A stretch of DNA of 64,000 bases from a virus (IMGVR_UViG_3300032319_000936:116759-180758); one strand, 5' to 3'; counted from the first letter of the stretch, positions 9,715 through 57,162 are shown. Notes: generated by a model from the letters alone, not told the origin. Made by a program: numbers and translations.

Positions 9715-10125
9715 CTATCGGTTTATATTTTCATTTACCCAGTCTCTATAATCTTTTAGATTCTGTAAATTCTTTTTACCTTTCTTTTTCTTCTTTACAT
9801 CCGGATCCAAGTAAGGAACTACTGGACCAGGACCGCTTGGAGAAAATTCTTCCGCACCGGTAACATTAACAAGTGGAACTATCGCTGTCTTTCCTCCGAC
9901 TGCTAATTCACCTTTTTCGTTAACTTCGTCCTCTTTTACGTAATGTGGAAGATTCTTTGTCTTGGTTGATGCAAAATCTTCTAATTGTTTCTTGGTCATT
10001 TTTTTAGCTAGTGCTAAAATTTCAGACTTGTACTTTGGGTTCAAATCTGATGGCTTAAGCTCTCCGGTCTTAATACCATAAGCAGACCCCATTAACCTTT
10101 GTTGGGCTTGACTTTGTGCTGGCAT
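9715..10125 (-). CDS. DUF3008-like protein
   Basis: MPAQSQAQQRLMG...MTKKQLEDFASTKTKNLP matches the DUF3008 pattern. Confidence 0.7.
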   Translation of the reverse strand: MPAQSQAQQRLMGSAYGIKTGELKPSDLNPKYKSEILALAKKMTKKQLEDFASTKTKNLPHYVKEDEVNEKGELAVGGKTAIVPLVNVTGAEEFSPSGPGPVVPYLDPDVKKKKKGKKNLQNLKDYRDWVNENINR

Positions 10126-10948: not shown

Positions 10949-11491
10949 TTATCTAGAGATTAAAATTGAATTTTTATCAACTCCTTCCTGTACGCTCCAA
11001 TCTTCTCCCAAGTATGAAATAACTATGGATTTCATAAATTCCATATATGTTCCTTCACCTGAGAAAACTAGATTATCCTGTATCTCGTCGTAAATCTTGG
11101 ATACTTTAGCATTATACTCCAGGTAATCCAAAATACATTTAGAAACGGTCTCGAATAGTCTAGACACATCGCTTTCCTCCATTTTAAACTCCGCAGATGT
11201 CGCGGGAGGTAAATCAGCTTTGCTTACCGCTATATCCTCTATTTGCTCAGATGATAATTTATTAATGCCAAGCACGCAATATGAGTTCTTAGGCTGATCT
11301 ATTACCTGATGGCTGGAGTATTTACCAATCATGAGTCTAAAGGCATCCTGTTTTCCTTCCTCCCCTGTGTCTATGTAAAAGAGATAGTTAAAGATGTCCT
11401 TTTCTTTCCTTAAAAGGAAGGGTTTCGTTCCAAATCCATCGGACTCGAAAACAGATTCTAAGAATTCATTAAATTTTTTAATTGAAGCCAT
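10949..11491 (-). CDS. Hypothetical protein with N-terminal capsid-targeting-like motif
   Basis: Starts MASIKKFNEFLES. Confidence 0.7.
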   Translation of the reverse strand: MASIKKFNEFLESVFESDGFGTKPFLLRKEKDIFNYLFYIDTGEEGKQDAFRLMIGKYSSHQVIDQPKNSYCVLGINKLSSEQIEDIAVSKADLPPATSAEFKMEESDVSRLFETVSKCILDYLEYNAKVSKIYDEIQDNLVFSGEGTYMEFMKSIVISYLGEDWSVQEGVDKNSILISR

Positions 11492-11492
11492 T

Positions 11493-12578
11493 TTATAAAA
11501 ATATTTCTACCTTGTTGGGATAAACCCTGAAGTATATATTCAAGTCATTAAGTATCTCTATGTTTCGATCATTTACAAACGATTCATTTTTAACTAGAAC
11601 TGAAAGAGCATCTGGAAATCCACCCGTATTCTCGCTATAGATTATCATCGTGTTAAAGTTCTCTGGCTTGGAGTAATGCTCTATCTGATGGCATATTAAT
11701 ATTGGAACTATCTTATCCGGATCGCGGTCAGTTCTAAATCCAACTATCTGGTGAAATCTCTTCCAGAACTCGTTTGCCTTTATCTGGCTAGATTTTATTT
11801 TAGCCAGAAGCAGGTTCAAAGATCTCTTACCGTATGTTTTCTCCTTCTTTTTTGATTTGCCGCTTATCCTATACGATAGGTCTATAAACTGCTTAATTTT
11901 AGGGGATACTAGATTATCCTCGCTGGTAATAGATGCACTTATAGTGGATTTCACTTCAACACGATTGCCATCTATAAAAATATCAGCACCTCTCTCATTG
12001 TTGATAAATCCTCCAAAGGAAAGACAAGAAAGTGTCTCACCCTTACCTCTTCTTCTTTTACCGCTCGGAAAGTATGCATCTATAGTATAAATCTCCTTCA
12101 GATCCTTTCTAGAAATACCATTGAAGCTATCGATCCATCCTATATCAGTTGTGCCATTCTTTACGGCATCGGAGAAACTTATAGAACCTTTGATGGGTTG
12201 TTTTTTAATGAATCTTTTCTCTATGGTATCTAAGGTAACGGGATCTAGATTAATGTAGAAATCCTCAACGTATCCCCTCCTGAACATAATACGGGAATCC
12301 TCGTTAGATCTACCAAAGAATACCTTATATAGGGTTTCTATAATCTGACTAGATCTCTTATCACTATCGTGTATAATATCAAGCAGAGAGGAAGAGCTTT
12401 TTATATTCTTTATTAGTTTTCTCAGCTTTCTGAAACCAGCTTCATCTATACCTGATAAATTGAATTCATCCAGTCTATCTGACATAGAGCCAAGAATGGA
12501 TTTGCATTGCTCTATTTCTAGTGCAACTATATCCTTAGGTGTCTCTGATTTTTTAGGTTTTCTTTTTGAAACCTGCAT
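11493..12578 (-). CDS. PD-(D/E)xK-family nuclease
   Basis: GKGE...GADIFIDGNRVEVKS motif. Confidence 0.65.
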   Translation of the reverse strand: MQVSKRKPKKSETPKDIVALEIEQCKSILGSMSDRLDEFNLSGIDEAGFRKLRKLIKNIKSSSSLLDIIHDSDKRSSQIIETLYKVFFGRSNEDSRIMFRRGYVEDFYINLDPVTLDTIEKRFIKKQPIKGSISFSDAVKNGTTDIGWIDSFNGISRKDLKEIYTIDAYFPSGKRRRGKGETLSCLSFGGFINNERGADIFIDGNRVEVKSTISASITSEDNLVSPKIKQFIDLSYRISGKSKKKEKTYGKRSLNLLLAKIKSSQIKANEFWKRFHQIVGFRTDRDPDKIVPILICHQIEHYSKPENFNTMIIYSENTGGFPDALSVLVKNESFVNDRNIEILNDLNIYFRVYPNKVEIFL

Positions 12579-12582
12579 TCAG

Positions 12583-14523
12583 TTACTTTTTAGAACTTTG
12601 GTTTAATCCGTTATGTACACCAGAAACGAGGGTTGCGTATAATGAAGCGACACAAGGTGGTACTAACTTCTTAAATGCTGTGAAATCCTCATTCTTAAGT
12701 TTATCCCTTACCTCGGTTGCACTAGTCGTTCTTTTGGTTTTAAAGACCTTCGTAGTGGTTGGGAATTCCTTACCCGCTTTAACCAGGTAATCCACTTGCT
12801 TGTTATAATCGTCAGATTTATCATCTCCTGCCCCTATTAACTCGATTCTATAACCTAGCTTTCTAATCTCTCCAGCTATAATACCTAAAAGACCTCTATT
12901 GACAATTATGAATCCGCTTAAAACTTCCGGATATTCTCTAACAACAGATTCCATGTAAGTCTTTATAACATTATCGTCGAATGGTGATTTTCCTGATTTA
13001 TTATGACCAGGATAGACCACAACAGCTATAGATGGTAAATCGTTTTGCTCTTTTAGTTCCTTTGTCATTGCTAAGTGACCTTTATGGAAAGGTTGGAATC
13101 TGCCAACAATAATATTAATTGGCTTTAATTCATTTTTATTAGAATCCTCTTCTAGCGGAGCTATATTTTTAACTTCCTTTGTGTCTATATGTTCAAGATC
13201 AGATATGAATTGTGAGAATGTCTCGCCATATGGTTGGGGTTCTTCCTGCTCGTTATCGGATTCCTCAGTGACATATTCTACTTTCTTTCTAAATTTAGAT
13301 TTAAAATCATTGAAAGAAGGTATCTCAGATTCGTTTATTTTTTTAGTCTCCTTTTCAGAAATAGCTTCTTCTATCTCCTTCACGACTGAATTGAACTGAT
13401 CTATAAAATCCTGATTTATTATTCCACCAGCTCTCTTTTTTATTTTTCTAAACTGGTTAACGATCAATTTATATAGGGATTCAAAAGCGTCATCCTCTTC
13501 TATATAGGCAAGAGCAGCTCTATTTGGAACCATTTTCTTATTGACTCTAAACTCATCTTTCTTTAAATATTCAGGTTCCTCGAAATCAGTTTCACTATAC
13601 TTATCCTTATACTCATCTAAGAACTTAACAAACACGTCAGAGATAAAAGAAAGATATCTTTCATCTTCTGTTTTACCTTTGAAATCAAAACTACCAACTC
13701 CTCTTTCAAGTATGAAATTCATAACATCCAGAATAGTTATAACTAAGAAATCGCTAGGCTTTGTCTCTTTCTTCTGCACATATTTACTCTTTGCCAGCTC
13801 GGTGAAAAGAGGATCTACCATTTTTGCTAAAACCGGTTCTTCACCTTCCTCATCAGAGCCAAATCTAAATACTATACCTTCGATTGCCTTTTCTAGATCA
13901 TTATTCAATGCTGTCTTTTCCAATTTAGGATTTAAAACACCAACTATGTAAGCCACAAAGCTCTTTGTTCTAAATTCCTCTATAAGATCAGAGAATGGTG
14001 TGTTTATAAACTCGAGAATACTTCTTTTTTGGAGCTCTGTTAATTTGCCTTGAAAAATGATAGGTGGCCTTTCTACTCCTAGTAAATCCGCCCATTTATC
14101 TAGATCTTCTTTACTTTGTATAGTTGACTTTGCTCTGCCGTTATCTAATTTGTGGACGTACGATAGAATGAGATTGTTGTTTGGCATTCTATCATAAGCA
14201 ATCTCAAGTGGCTGCGGAGAAGAGAAATATTCAAGACCAAATCTCCACCCTCTTGGTATCAATTGTATCACGTGTGGTGGAAGTGACTCTATGTATTGTA
14301 TAGGCTTCTCGTAGTACTTCATAATGGTTCTATCGACCATTGTGATGGGATTTCTCTGATCCCTTTTATAAAACTTAAATTTACCATTATCGATATCGCG
14401 TTCAAATGTGAACGCAGAACCGTCCATCTTTTCGTTCACTGTCACGAAAGAGCTAAAGAGGTTGTTGATAAACTCGTTCCCTTTTTTGTGGTAAAGATCC
14501 TGTAGATGGGAAATACTTGACAT
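12583..14523 (-). CDS. Fusion of an RNA-ligase-like adenylyltransferase domain and an HxGH (NMNAT/cytidylyltransferase-like) domain
   Basis: N-terminal half: EKMDGS (motif I), GLEYF (III), EGIVFR (IV), LAKMVD (V). C-terminal domain: IVGRFQPFHKGH, SPF, TSATEVR. Confidence 0.8.
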   Translation of the reverse strand: MSSISHLQDLYHKKGNEFINNLFSSFVTVNEKMDGSAFTFERDIDNGKFKFYKRDQRNPITMVDRTIMKYYEKPIQYIESLPPHVIQLIPRGWRFGLEYFSSPQPLEIAYDRMPNNNLILSYVHKLDNGRAKSTIQSKEDLDKWADLLGVERPPIIFQGKLTELQKRSILEFINTPFSDLIEEFRTKSFVAYIVGVLNPKLEKTALNNDLEKAIEGIVFRFGSDEEGEEPVLAKMVDPLFTELAKSKYVQKKETKPSDFLVITILDVMNFILERGVGSFDFKGKTEDERYLSFISDVFVKFLDEYKDKYSETDFEEPEYLKKDEFRVNKKMVPNRAALAYIEEDDAFESLYKLIVNQFRKIKKRAGGIINQDFIDQFNSVVKEIEEAISEKETKKINESEIPSFNDFKSKFRKKVEYVTEESDNEQEEPQPYGETFSQFISDLEHIDTKEVKNIAPLEEDSNKNELKPINIIVGRFQPFHKGHLAMTKELKEQNDLPSIAVVVYPGHNKSGKSPFDDNVIKTYMESVVREYPEVLSGFIIVNRGLLGIIAGEIRKLGYRIELIGAGDDKSDDYNKQVDYLVKAGKEFPTTTKVFKTKRTTSATEVRDKLKNEDFTAFKKLVPPCVASLYATLVSGVHNGLNQSSKK

Positions 14524-14563
14524 AAATTCGCTTTTTAATTTTAACTTAAATTTTACTTTTGTT

Positions 14564-15490
14564 TCAGCCTAATTTTTCTGTCTCAGGTGGAACAGGTAAA
14601 TCTGTTCTATTTAGTAACTGTATAAACTTCTCCTTTATCTGAGGAAGAAATTCTTTATATTTGAAATTCGGAGAAGTCATTATAGATAAAACTTTTTCGA
14701 ATGTTTTGACGTCATTCTCACTATATCCTGGTCCAAGGGCATAGTTTATAAATTCCTGTGGATCATCTGTTATGAATTCTTCTGTTCCCGGAAGCTTTTG
14801 AGCATTTTTTAATCTCGGCTTTAATTTACCTCTAAAGCTTTTGGTTTGGAGATATAAACCGCTAGGTAAAATCAAAGCAGGTGTTCTATAATCTAAAACC
14901 TCACCCTGTTCATCATTAGCCAATATCTCTCTTCTTGCAACAAGAGCTGCACTTAAAAGCCAATTTCTATGAGCAGATTTCCACTGGCTTTCATCCATTC
15001 TATAATCAGGCGAATAATAGATAAACTTCGCCCATTCCATATTTTGGAGAGGCATAAGATCCAGTTGGACAAAACCGTTATTTGCATCACCAGCTATTGG
15101 CCAAGCTACACTAAGTATATTCAGGCCAGATAGATTGTTCATTTCTGGCTCAAATCCAAGAACTCTAGGTAGCTCTGGGCTTAGCATATTCATAAGAGTC
15201 TTCGAGCACTCCTTGAATGGTATACCATTCTTAGTAGCAAAATAATTTCCATTAAATCCAAGATCTATATCACCGGATGTGTCCTCGATATTTTTCTTCT
15301 TTCCGGTTGAGCCTATAAAAATATAGTCCTTTCCCTCTTTATAGGAATCAAGATCTAAAAGAGGTAACAGAACCTCTTTTATATTTTCTATGGTTTTCAT
15401 AGCTTCGTCCTGTCTGATCGGTCTAGCACTTTTAATAGCCTTCCCGCCTTCAGATACATTCTTAAACTCCCCGAAATTTTTTAATCTCAT
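14564..15490 (-). CDS. Pol-beta superfamily nucleotidyltransferase
   Basis: IGSTGKK...SGDIDL (GS..DxD) with a third Asp in VQLDLM; N-terminal MRLKNFGEF motif. Confidence 0.75.
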   Translation of the reverse strand: MRLKNFGEFKNVSEGGKAIKSARPIRQDEAMKTIENIKEVLLPLLDLDSYKEGKDYIFIGSTGKKKNIEDTSGDIDLGFNGNYFATKNGIPFKECSKTLMNMLSPELPRVLGFEPEMNNLSGLNILSVAWPIAGDANNGFVQLDLMPLQNMEWAKFIYYSPDYRMDESQWKSAHRNWLLSAALVARREILANDEQGEVLDYRTPALILPSGLYLQTKSFRGKLKPRLKNAQKLPGTEEFITDDPQEFINYALGPGYSENDVKTFEKVLSIMTSPNFKYKEFLPQIKEKFIQLLNRTDLPVPPETEKLG

Positions 15491-16044
15491 TATTTCTTCT
15501 GATTTATTCTACCGTAATATCTCGATGTTGCATCGTATAGATCCTCAGCATATCTTTTCTCGTCTTCTGTCTTTGGCTTGTCAGGATCAAAGTCTTTACC
15601 GAAAATTTTCTTGCCTCTTTCCACACCATTCATGTAAAAATTAGCAGCATCCTTATCTGTAACTTTTTTCTGATCACCACTAAATGTTTTTCTTTCCCAC
15701 CTGTCCAAATCCTCCTTGCTTTTCTTTTTGTAACCTTCCCCTTTTTTAGCGTCACCGAAAAGAGCATCACTAACTCCAGCTCCTAAGTTAAGAAGAAAAC
15801 CAGATATTGAACCTAAAACTCTCAAAGGATCTCCTAGATTTTTAGTTTTTCCGGGTGCATCCTTTCTAGCATCCATCCCGCTTTTAACTCTTCCCTTTAT
15901 ATCCTCTAACCAGTTTCCGATATTGCTAGATCTTTCTCTGTCCTTGAAAACAGAAAGCTTTCCCTTTAAAGGTCCGTATCCTCTATCTGAGCCGTAATAT
16001 CTTCTCTCCTCTGTTATAAATTGATCGAAATTCTTGATTCCCAT
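15490..16044 (-). CDS. Hypothetical protein with capsid-targeting-like motif
   Basis: Starts MGIKNFDQFITEE; one amphipathic/hydrophobic segment. Confidence 0.7.
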   Translation of the reverse strand: MGIKNFDQFITEERRYYGSDRGYGPLKGKLSVFKDRERSSNIGNWLEDIKGRVKSGMDARKDAPGKTKNLGDPLRVLGSISGFLLNLGAGVSDALFGDAKKGEGYKKKSKEDLDRWERKTFSGDQKKVTDKDAANFYMNGVERGKKIFGKDFDPDKPKTEDEKRYAEDLYDATSRYYGRINQKK

Positions 16045-16059
16045 AAGAAATTTTTATTC

Positions 16060-16067
16060 TATATATC
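16060..16067 (-). promoter_or_regulatory. Putative late promoter GATATATA heading the NTase/ligase operon
   Basis: Recurrent octamer 15 nt upstream of the ATG. Confidence 0.65.
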
Positions 16068-55956: not shown

Positions 55957-57162
55957 CTAAGATATTATTCTTTTACCGGCTGAGTCATATACCCAGAACT
56001 CGAAAGAAAGACCCATATCTATAGATGCTTTTCTTTTTCTCATATTTACCGTATATGCATAATCAAAAGTATAATGAGATTTGACCTCTATTATTTTGTT
56101 TTCGGATAGCACAAAAATATCGGGGTAGTATTTCCTTTTTTTATTTTCAGAATCGGGATAAAAAATGACACAGGTATGCATTTCTATGTCCTTATTGGAA
56201 ACTATTATATCATCTTCAGAATATCCAGAATTCAATAAATCGATAATAGCAAACCCTTCGTATCCCTGTATTTTTTCAATTCTACCGGACGGAAAAACGA
56301 AAATCTTCTTCCTATAGGAAGTGCTAATTGATTTCTCAAATGAGTCGGTATGATGCATAGCGTGTTCTACCCCATACCTGGCCAACATAGTCTCGGTGAA
56401 TTTCTTTTTAAACTCATCACTTTGAACATACCAGTCAACCCCGTGTTTTTTCTGATTTGTTGCTTTGGATTTATCCCGTACTTCGGATGAGCACATACTA
56501 GAGTTACCGCCATATTTTTCCCTGTTGGTAGCCATTGATTTCTCTTTTACCTCCGGATTTAAAAGTGCGTTTGAAAATCCATATTTTTCGATGTTTGTTT
56601 TTCTCTTCTTATCCTGAGTGGAACTTAGTTTGGTTGGATGTCCCCCGTATTTCTCTTCGAAAGTCTCCTTTGTTTTTTTCTTAAATTCATCAGTCGAAGT
56701 GTAATAGTCAGCGCCGTATTTCTTACGGTTATTTGCTCTTATCTTTTCCGAAGCTCCGGGTACGGCCATCGGATTTGTGGTGTTATATCTTTCCAGCATC
56801 GTCTTATTGGTTCTATCCATGTTGTATTTCTTGGCACAATCGATACCCATACATGTAGCATAGTAGTTTACTGGGTTTGTTGGCTTTTCGCCGTATCTGT
56901 CTATCGAGAATTTTGGTATTTTCGTAAACATGCGAGGCGATTTACAATATGGGCAGACCTCTATCTCATAGAAATTAAACCAAGCGTGGTAAAATCTCTG
57001 CTGCGAGGAGATATTGGATGGCTCATAAAAGTCATCCAAGAATAGAGTTAATGATTTTAATTGGTCAAGATCTTCCTGACTCTGAGAGATCCGATAGAGA
57101 TAAGCTCCAAAGGCTTGGCCTTTTTTGTCCCTCCAGGATTCCATTTTTTGAAGTATCCGCAT
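55957..57162 (-). mobile_element. Free-standing putative homing endonuclease gene (Zn finger, KYG repeats, PD-(D/E)xK domain)
   Basis: CPYC..C..C, then about 7 KxxxTNxEKYGxxxxx repeats, then YYPDIF..KIIEVKS. Inserted between the neck and gp25 genes with its own promoter motif. Confidence 0.7.

Follow-up and report, generated by a model that had tools for sequence, protein, structure and literature searches.

The window analysed here is a stretch of 64,000 nucleotides, bases 116759-180758 of a 180.7-kb viral contig from IMG/VR (IMGVR_UViG_3300032319_000936, here G000; CheckV completeness 66%), and its source is an uncultured, T4-like jumbo phage. It contains five co-directional minus-strand genes, which we call gA to gE, downstream of the short motif GATATATA. 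The gaps between gA, gB, gC and gD are -1, 40 and 4 nt, and a helicase gene and a gp32 homolog lie upstream of the cluster. A preliminary description of this DNA had seen in four of the genes an operon of nucleotidyl-transfer enzymes plus a nuclease; the positions that it gave for the four open reading frames (ORFs), all on the minus strand, are exact. The fifth gene, gE, belongs with gA-gD, though it lies just beyond the interval covered at that time. The features are listed below, with positions counted from the first letter of the window (aa, amino acids).

16060..16067, minus strand: promoter-like motif GATATATA, 15 nt 5' of the gA ATG.
15490..16044, minus strand: gA, 184 aa, basic (isoelectric point 9.5), with leader MGIKNFDQFITE followed by E.
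14564..15490, minus strand: gB, 308 aa, putative minimal PolX-like Pol-beta nucleotidyltransferase, with leader MRLKNFGEFKNVSE followed by GG.
12583..14523, minus strand: gC, 646 aa, Rnl2-like ligase, acidic linker and HxGH domain.
13804..14523, minus strand: gC residues 1-240, covalent-nucleotidyltransferase (ligase) domain with motifs I, III, IV and V.
13354..13752, minus strand: gC residues 258-390, all-helical domain located where Rnl2 has its C-terminal domain; OB fold absent.
13132..13350, minus strand: gC residues 392-464, acidic disordered linker.
12604..13128, minus strand: gC residues 466-640, HxGH (HIGH-superfamily) adenylyltransferase domain, Rossmann-like (PF01467, E 2e-5).
11493..12578, minus strand: gD, 361 aa, basic, with a PD-(D/E)xK-type signature.
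10949..11491, minus strand: gE, 180 aa, acidic, with leader MASIKKFNEFLE followed by S; directly after gD.

gB carries the active site of a Pol-beta-type nucleotidyltransferase, as had been proposed from a GS..DxD..D pattern. The residues G60-S61 x12 D74-I-D76 and D144 are invariant in 42 homologs and conform to the superfamily motif hG[GS] x9-13 Dh[DE]h; in the AlphaFold (AF2) model, which has a predicted local distance difference test score (pLDDT) of 91, the third carboxylate, D144, is located in strand 140-148. To which branch of the superfamily does this protein belong? The eight best VIA structural matches are all members of family X (Pol beta, Leishmania pol beta, pol lambda, TdT, Thermus PolX and the Pol X of African swine fever virus, ASFV), with Z scores of 8.5-9.2 over 163-202 residues and model residues 20-265 covered; VIA Z scores of 7-8 are common background, above which these values of about 9 rise only slightly to moderately. 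Foldseek gave a probability of 0.99 for the match to pol lambda. TUTases, CD-NTases, OAS and CCA-adding enzymes align only with the core at gB residues 26-150 (VIA Z 5-8). Because the structural matches favor family X, gB may be viewed as a minimal PolX-like enzyme without the 8-kDa lyase and HhH domains: its palm starts right after a 14-residue leader. The model also has a beta-rich insert (188-241) and additional C-terminal helices. The gB family comprises 758 clusters at 50% identity and is confined to viruses, its nearest Atlas clusters all being from Uroviricota. Searches of Pfam, PHROGs, NCBIfam and the PDB with phmmer and hmmsearch, using alignments, gave nothing useful for gA, gB, gD or gE.

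The gC protein, whose model has a pLDDT of 70, falls into four parts. The first has the motifs of a covalent nucleotidyltransferase, namely I (EK32MDGS), III (FGLE98YF), IV (E215GIVF) and V (AK234MV), in which K32, D34, G35, E98, E215 and K234 are invariant in 40 homologs. The earlier assignment of an Rnl2-like ligase is borne out by the invariance of motifs I, III and IV and by Foldseek, which matches the N-terminal half of gC to T4 Rnl2 (2hvr/2hvq, E 1.5e-6, TM score 0.35) and also to Trl1-LIG, Rnl3, Rnl1 and REL1. It does not extend to motif V: Rnl2 would lead one to expect KxK, and since K234-M235-V236 is invariant the second lysine is missing. Against PF09414 the domain scores 23.4 bits (E 7.6e-5), below the cut-off of 27. 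Foldseek alignments of gC to full-length T4 Rnl2 run to 360-400 columns. Like T4 Rnl2, REL1 and Trl1-LIG, gC has a KxDG lysine and motifs III and IV, and its model suggests a comparable helical domain after the ligase core with no OB fold; unlike them it stays below the family cut-off, has a one-lysine motif V and bears an added HxGH domain, to which relatives join a nuclease domain. The linker that follows (pLDDT <50) contains two FxxF islands, PSFNDFK (402-408) and FSQFISDLE (436-444; nt 13192-13218), which are invariant or nearly so in the 40 homologs. The second of these can be aligned both to the leaders at the N-termini of stand-alone HxGH proteins and to the start of T4 IPIII, MKTYQEFIAE; the fusion has therefore retained the leader of its HxGH half internally.

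The C-terminal domain of gC has the motifs GRFQPFHKGH (474-483), SPF (513-515) and SATEVR (601-606), in which the preliminary description saw a resemblance to the nicotinamide mononucleotide (NMN) adenylyltransferases (NMNATs) of the NadM type. The resemblance is real: G474-H483 is invariant and S601/R606 are conserved in 40 homologs, and by VIA the fold matches NadD, PPAT and NadM over nearly their whole length (Z 13.6-15.4, 150-160 residues). For the NadM structures 1f9a and 1ej2 the values are Z 13.8-14.4 over 150-156 residues, at 19-21% identity. The sequence match to the 1f9a NMNAT (E 1e-3) covers the motif region only, and the NMNAT models TIGR01527 and PRK01153 match just the first 27 residues, scoring 23.8 bits (cut-off 181) and 28.5 bits (cut-off 127), respectively; eight stand-alone HxGH relatives likewise fall short of the curated NMNAT cut-offs. 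The domain would accordingly be classed as NadM-like by its motifs, while its modelled fold fits NadD and PPAT equally well. It shares its motifs and a compact single-domain fold with NadM proteins (M. jannaschii 1f9a, phage NadM-Nudix, NatV) but lies more than 100 bits below the curated NMNAT cut-offs and is mostly linked to a polymerase-like nucleotidyltransferase and a ligase, not to Nampt or Nudix.

Linkage of these domains was followed in 77 IMG/VR loci scanned by BLAST and hidden Markov models. In the close clade gB adjoins the ligase-HxGH fusion in 26 of 30 loci, the exceptions being truncated loci. Among relatives at 25-35% identity, 15 of the 17 loci with a full-length HxGH protein of the gC-type family have gB within 7 kb, and eight of those 15 also have a ligase-like gene; the order in these distant loci is HxGH, gB, ligase, as separate and often overlapping genes. 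Proteins of 483 and 507 aa downstream of gB in distant loci were considered as further members and proved, by hhalign, to be neither ligase-like nor gD-like. Ligase-HxGH fusions are found in the window and in a second locus (L039), which has a second HxGH domain as well, and an HxGH-gB fusion is found in another (L041). Among the 150 best gB representatives, which were surveyed for long fusions, 33 are at least 420 aa long; seven of the 33 combine gB and HxGH, in both orders, and one protein of 1802 aa (P0253) consists of three gB modules, an HxGH domain and a Nudix domain. It is unlikely that such proteins are read-through artefacts: their junctions have no restart signature, and each has the sequence hxE-GG. 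In a further protein (P0266, 589 aa) gB is fused to a DruA-like (Druantia) domain.

Similar genes had been said to occur in T4-like phages, and carriers could be named: homologs are present in Lak megaphages, Atu_ph07 and Phosso, in all of which they are annotated as hypothetical. Atu_ph07 is a cultured phage; its gp066, which starts ..LEKLDGS.. and matches PF09414 weakly but over the full length, abuts the gB homolog gp065, both being annotated as hypothetical. Our literature searches found no description of a gC-type ligase-HxGH fusion. As to whether the whole operon is conserved as a unit, the gB, ligase-like and HxGH domains (the triad) are co-conserved and repeatedly fused, whereas gA and gD occur only in close relatives. 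gA has no family match, and its homologs (28-45% identity) are confined to the close clade. In that clade gE is always directly downstream of gC (or gD), with 40-64% identity in 30 loci.

Three of the five proteins, gA, gB and gE, begin with a leader of about 10-16 residues that resembles the capsid-targeting sequence (CTS) of T4. It has the form [KR]xFx[EQ]F..hxE, with aromatics three apart and then (I/L/V)-x-E. A capsid-targeting-like motif had been noted before on several members, and it is found at these three N-termini and in the internal islands of the gC linker. The T4 proteins IPIII and IPII (NC_000866) begin MKTYQEFIAE followed by A, and the spacing is the same as in gA, gB and gE. 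In the T4 CTS, residues 4 and 7 direct targeting and residues 8 and 10 processing, and gp21 cuts after L/I-x-E (PMC9026906). When the first 16 residues of the 310 ORFs of the contig were scanned for [KR]x[FYW]x[EQDN][FYW], the leader was found on 12 ORFs, against about 1.7 expected from its internal frequency. The same leader is on stand-alone HxGH proteins and on distant gB homologs. In gB itself F6, F9, E14, G15 and G16 are invariant (42 homologs), the model is least confident at residues 11-15, and the leader ends at a conserved hxE-GG junction; in several family members the protein starts right there, with MGGNA.., and in the polyproteins hxE-GG stands before each internal gB module. A gp21-type protease (PF03420) is encoded by all four complete relatives; the window's contig (66% complete) yielded none. 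The Atu_ph07 homologs have no leader and are not annotated as virion proteins.

Because of the leader enrichment, the conserved junction and the protease in relatives, packaging of gA, gB and gE can reasonably be inferred. The idea that the operon as a whole is packaged in the virion is plausible to that extent but does not reach gC and gD, whose N-termini lack a leader. The comparison with T4 IPI-IPIII is close in that the leader reads K-x-aromatic-x-(E/Q)-F-(I/L)-x-E at the T4 spacing and a gp21-family protease is present in relatives. It differs in that the cargo would be enzymes of 180-310 aa, nucleotidyltransferases among them, and in that the gC motif is internal.

What might these proteins do together? 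Because they are analogous to the pairs formed by RlaP with Rnl and by minimal PolX enzymes with ligases, we tentatively propose that gA-gE are a dedicated fill-and-seal kit for the repair of nucleic-acid ends, partly delivered in the capsid, a proposal to which we would give somewhat less than an even chance. RlaP, a ligase-associated Pol-beta nucleotidyltransferase, adds 1-2 nucleoside monophosphates to damaged RNA 3' ends ahead of ligation (PMC12776372), and in jumbo phages it is predicted to work together with ligases (PMC7824862). As in the RlaP (PF10127) and RNA ligase pairs, a nucleotidyltransferase of the Pol-beta superfamily is genetically coupled here to an enzyme with the fold of ATP-dependent RNA ligases. 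Unlike in those pairs, gB appears to have a PolX-type second subdomain, HxGH is an obligatory third partner, and the leaders suggest capsid delivery. The other comparison is with ASFV Pol X and its viral ligase, with Pol beta and lambda, and with LigD as an analog: gB seems to have the palm and nucleotide-selection subdomains, is without lyase or HhH domains, and has a putative sealing enzyme as partner, here with a predicted nuclease in addition. ASFV Pol X aligns with gB over 166 of 176 residues (Z 8.7). In contrast to the PolX-ligase pairs, the sequence similarity of gB is undetectable, gB has the insert at 188-241, and the partner is RNA-ligase-like and not an OB-fold DNA ligase.

From the observed folds, conserved catalytic residues, linkage and fusions, and from the presence and conservation of the leaders, we infer the activities of the kit, its substrate (RNA, DNA or a hybrid), its packaging and its timing, which would be as follows. 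gB, with its palm and nucleotide-selection subdomain, would add one or a few nucleotides to the 3'-OH at a break or gap. The N-terminal Rnl2-type ligase of gC would seal the nick, Lys32 accepting the AMP and a helical domain that binds the duplex standing in for an OB fold. The HxGH domain would contribute a supporting adenylyl transfer, either on a nucleotide cofactor (NMN to NAD+, the oxidized form of nicotinamide adenine dinucleotide, NAD) or on a 5'-phosphate end, and in the window's sub-clade gD, as a nuclease of the PD-(D/E)xK type, would trim or open the substrate. gA, gB and gE would probably be loaded into the prohead via the leader, cut by a gp21-family protease and ejected with the DNA; since the leader-bearing proteins would enter in this way, we propose that some components of the kit are already in the cell when infection starts.

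Several observations weigh against this proposal. The likeness of gB to family X is purely structural, with Z scores of about 9 where background is 7-8, and no PolX or RlaP profile detects the protein (PF10127 gave no match at E <=0.1 for gB or at E <=1 for the 42 homologs). Motif V of the gC ligase has one lysine instead of two. Distant ligase-like homologs keep the lysine but have lost the glutamates of motifs III and IV and have at most one lysine in motif V, so the function common to the triad may not be sealing. Moreover, six distant loci with HxGH and gB have no detectable ligase within 7 kb. The cluster is without a classic end-healing enzyme (kinase or phosphatase), and nucleic-acid repair offers an HxGH enzyme no obvious role. 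The N-termini of gC and gD have no leader, the gC motif being found only in the linker, and we know of no case in T4 in which an internal leader functions. Lastly, the neighbors of the cluster are gp32, a helicase and DNA polymerase, that is, a replication block, and the conserved adjacency could partly be inherited synteny of this block.

Other repair and salvage genes of the phage also have to be taken into account. A PF01068 DNA ligase is present in all four complete relatives, which removes gC as a candidate for the replicative ligase, and the complete relatives also have a canonical PF09414 RNA ligase, which removes it as the phage's sole RNA ligase. An NAD-dependent ligase was not found, and KptA was not found in five genomes; a Trl1/Tpt1-type, NAD-consuming ligation was rejected on the latter ground. 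The window's contig has at 40-66 kb RlaP (a genuine one, with 60 bits to PF10127), 2H-SAK, a CCA-adding enzyme, HAD-SAK plus Rnl, Nampt and a gene resembling phosphoribosyl pyrophosphate (PRPP) synthetase. Because the phage and its relatives have a DNA ligase, an RlaP/Rnl tRNA-repair set and Nampt of their own, we regard gA-gE as a separate system. The contig genes form an RNA-repair and nucleotide-salvage cluster (loci L083 and L084; G000:C1 40-52 kb and 62-66 kb) that includes Nampt with NAMPT_N and a protein resembling nucleoside 2-deoxyribosyltransferase; HAD-SAK and an OB-Rnl ligase come last in it. The Nampt-like/Prs-like pair of this cluster might serve a NARP1-type route rather than classical salvage.

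These salvage genes bear on an alternative that starts from the HxGH domain. If this domain were a true NMN adenylyltransferase, it would complete nicotinamide salvage together with Nampt and PRPP synthetase and so counter defenses that deplete NAD; the ligase fusion and the gB linkage would then be secondary, or would supply NAD+ locally to a partner. We consider this unlikely. The GRFQPFHxGH and SxTxxR motifs are indeed of the NadM type, the best specific sequence matches in NCBIfam and the PDB are archaeal NMNATs, and the fold spans the entire NadM and NadD; yet NMNAT models match no more than the first 25-50 residues, at 20-30 bits against cut-offs of 127-181, and the fold cannot tell an NMNAT from NaMNAT or PPAT. 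Nampt is on the window's contig, as is the PRPP-synthetase-like gene, and it is found in four of five close relatives that are at least 90% complete. However, one complete relative (G001) has gC but no Nampt, and Nampt is also missing from 11 distant carriers, whose sequences are fragments of at most 80% completeness. Two complete relatives have no HIGH-type enzyme apart from gC, which is the sole PF01467 match in G004 and the only non-spurious one in G002, but it is with gB, not Nampt, that the HxGH domain is constantly associated. A Nudix domain is added in one polyprotein, much as NadM-Nudix enzymes have one, whereas the capsid-targeting-like leader on stand-alone HxGH proteins would be odd for a salvage enzyme. 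Moreover, the Nampt-like and Prs-like pair could instead be the NARP1 route, which Osterman et al. reportedly described in 2024 as requiring no NMNAT.

The second PF01467 match in G002 (340 aa) was considered as a NatV-type NMNAT and rejected, since it is a zinc-finger/DUF559 endonuclease between the intein halves of an RNA ligase. In this complete relative (L086, G002:C1:77501-82500) the canonical RNA ligase is split into an OB domain with the N-terminal part of an intein and the C-terminal part of the intein with the ligase core, and a zinc-finger/DUF7487/DUF559 endonuclease gene (322 aa) lies between the two genes.

We also think it improbable that the proteins are injected effectors and have no part in repair. 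gB and the HxGH domain would then be capsid-delivered nucleotidyltransferases that modify a host protein, a small molecule, an RNA end or an immune messenger, or that make a decoy nucleotide, and the ligase-like domain would add a third module that adenylylates. T4 Alt and diverse internal proteins act upon injection, and leaders are present here not only on gB but also on stand-alone HxGH proteins, an RlaP homolog and a P-loop kinase. The gB family is fast-evolving as well as large and virus-only, and its multi-copy polyproteins and its Nudix and DruA-like fusions are typical of arms-race cargo, of which polyvalent proteins are an example (PMC5512222). The distant ligases that lost their catalytic glutamates and kept the lysine would fit such a role as well. 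Against it, the structural matches of gB go beyond the nucleotidyltransferase core and include the nucleotide-selection subdomain of the template-using family X, and the window's clade retains a complete Rnl2-like active site together with a helical domain of the duplex-binding type. Furthermore, the cluster lies within the replication block in two clades, and the fused domains point to no target. End repair, NAD+ synthesis and effector action are not fully exclusive of each other. Among the functions offered in the preliminary description, the evidence favors end repair over NAD re-synthesis or synthesis of a messenger.

Is gD part of the end-repair kit? Its residues E181, D199 and E208-V-K210 are invariant in 15 stand-alone and fused homologs and make up the signature E...D...(D/E)xK, so that a PD-(D/E)xK nuclease, as first suggested, is the predicted function. 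An ESM Atlas feature lead to restriction enzymes (R.HinP1I, SmaI and Eco47II clusters) is weak, with a score of only 0.81-0.82, and profile searches of the PDB and Pfam with gD were empty. The distribution of the gene is patchy: it is separate in the window, fused in relatives and absent in many, with just seven stand-alone clusters. This patchiness, the position between two conserved genes, like that of T4-type mobile endonuclease genes, and a phage lineage rich in inteins, introns and homing endonucleases would all suit a free-standing homing-type endonuclease, inserted between gC and gE in one sub-clade and lying outside the machine. We find this quite unlikely, however, for in at least eight protein clusters (1000-1015 aa) gD forms an in-frame fusion with the C-terminus of gC (for example P0015, residues 681-995, E 2e-55), and the active-site residues are invariant at only 35% identity. 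The fusion and the invariant residues therefore point to selection as a domain of the same protein as gC, and gD appears, from its sequence, to be a clade-restricted accessory part of the end-repair kit.

Very improbable, finally, is the notion that HxGH is a polynucleotide 5'-adenylyltransferase that runs the NMNAT reaction, AMP transfer to a 5'-phosphoribosyl group, on the 5'-phosphate of broken DNA or RNA (giving A5'pp5'N) and so pre-activates the end for a ligase with a one-lysine motif V, forming with the PolX-like filler a capsid-delivered end-joining machine that, within seconds of the onset of infection, could reseal the injected genome or cut RNA; if it were true, the polyprotein modules processed at E-GG would be a new class of enzymatic head cargo.

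RlaP with Rnl is the accepted model of phage RNA repair. The module described here would be a second, unannotated system, present in hundreds of phage protein clusters and with an NMNAT-like enzyme as its constant partner, and the capsid-targeting route of T4 appears here to serve for the delivery of enzymes, not of small inhibitor proteins. If the predicted activities are confirmed, a large family of 'hypothetical' proteins of jumbo phages (Atu_ph07, Phosso, Lak megaphages) would gain a function, and biotechnology would have at its disposal a minimal PolX-like enzyme and a ligase architecture that are both new. It would also be testable whether phages pre-load repair or NAD-related enzymes against the first attack by a nuclease or NADase.

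The leader is not confined to the gA-gE cluster and its homologs. Further ORFs with a T4-CTS-like N-terminus are found elsewhere on the contig:

G000:C1 41345-42541, 108255-108896, 55404-56054 and 56823-57503: further leader-bearing ORFs.

The leader is present on the RlaP homolog (MKELKKQFEDFIEE..), on a P-loop kinase-like protein (..GKIIVLLGPPG) and on two paralogous proteins of about 220 aa (MHIKKFTQFIVEN and MQIKKFTQFILEN), which, judged by their N-termini, suggests a broad enzymatic head cargo. In Atu_ph07 eight tandem paralogs of about 255 aa (gp056-gp063, 44-50 kb; L081) lie directly downstream of the ligase-gB pair. All start M(R/K)W(H/E/Q)QL(T/I/N)E, which is another leader-like N-terminus on an expanded family.

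The motif GATATATA is present before the small protein gA, where the preliminary description had placed the promoter of a late operon. Its count in the window, seven against 5.2 expected, is not above chance; all seven copies are on the coding strand, just 5' of ATGs. Over the whole contig it occurs within 70 nt upstream of 31 ORF starts and is enriched before leader-bearing ORFs (5 of 12, against 26 of 298 others; Fisher p 0.0035). PHROG annotation did not link the genes with GATATATA to any identified structural gene, and they could not be placed in the structural (late) class, since no informative PHROG was available for five of six such genes. Of the 'late operon', therefore, the promoter-like motif and its enrichment before leader genes stand, but the link to structural genes was not found, and the word 'late' is read from the motif. 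Scans for consensus sigma-70 promoters and terminators were at chance level, and there are no tRNA genes in the window.

Other genes of the window also have this motif. A DUF3008 protein (9715-10125, minus strand) has a GATATATA motif of its own and is syntenic downstream of the triad, with 40-50% identity even where the triad proteins have only 25-35%. Another is a homing-endonuclease-like gene (55957-57162, minus strand; phrog_3339, E 2e-20), which lies directly behind GATATATA.

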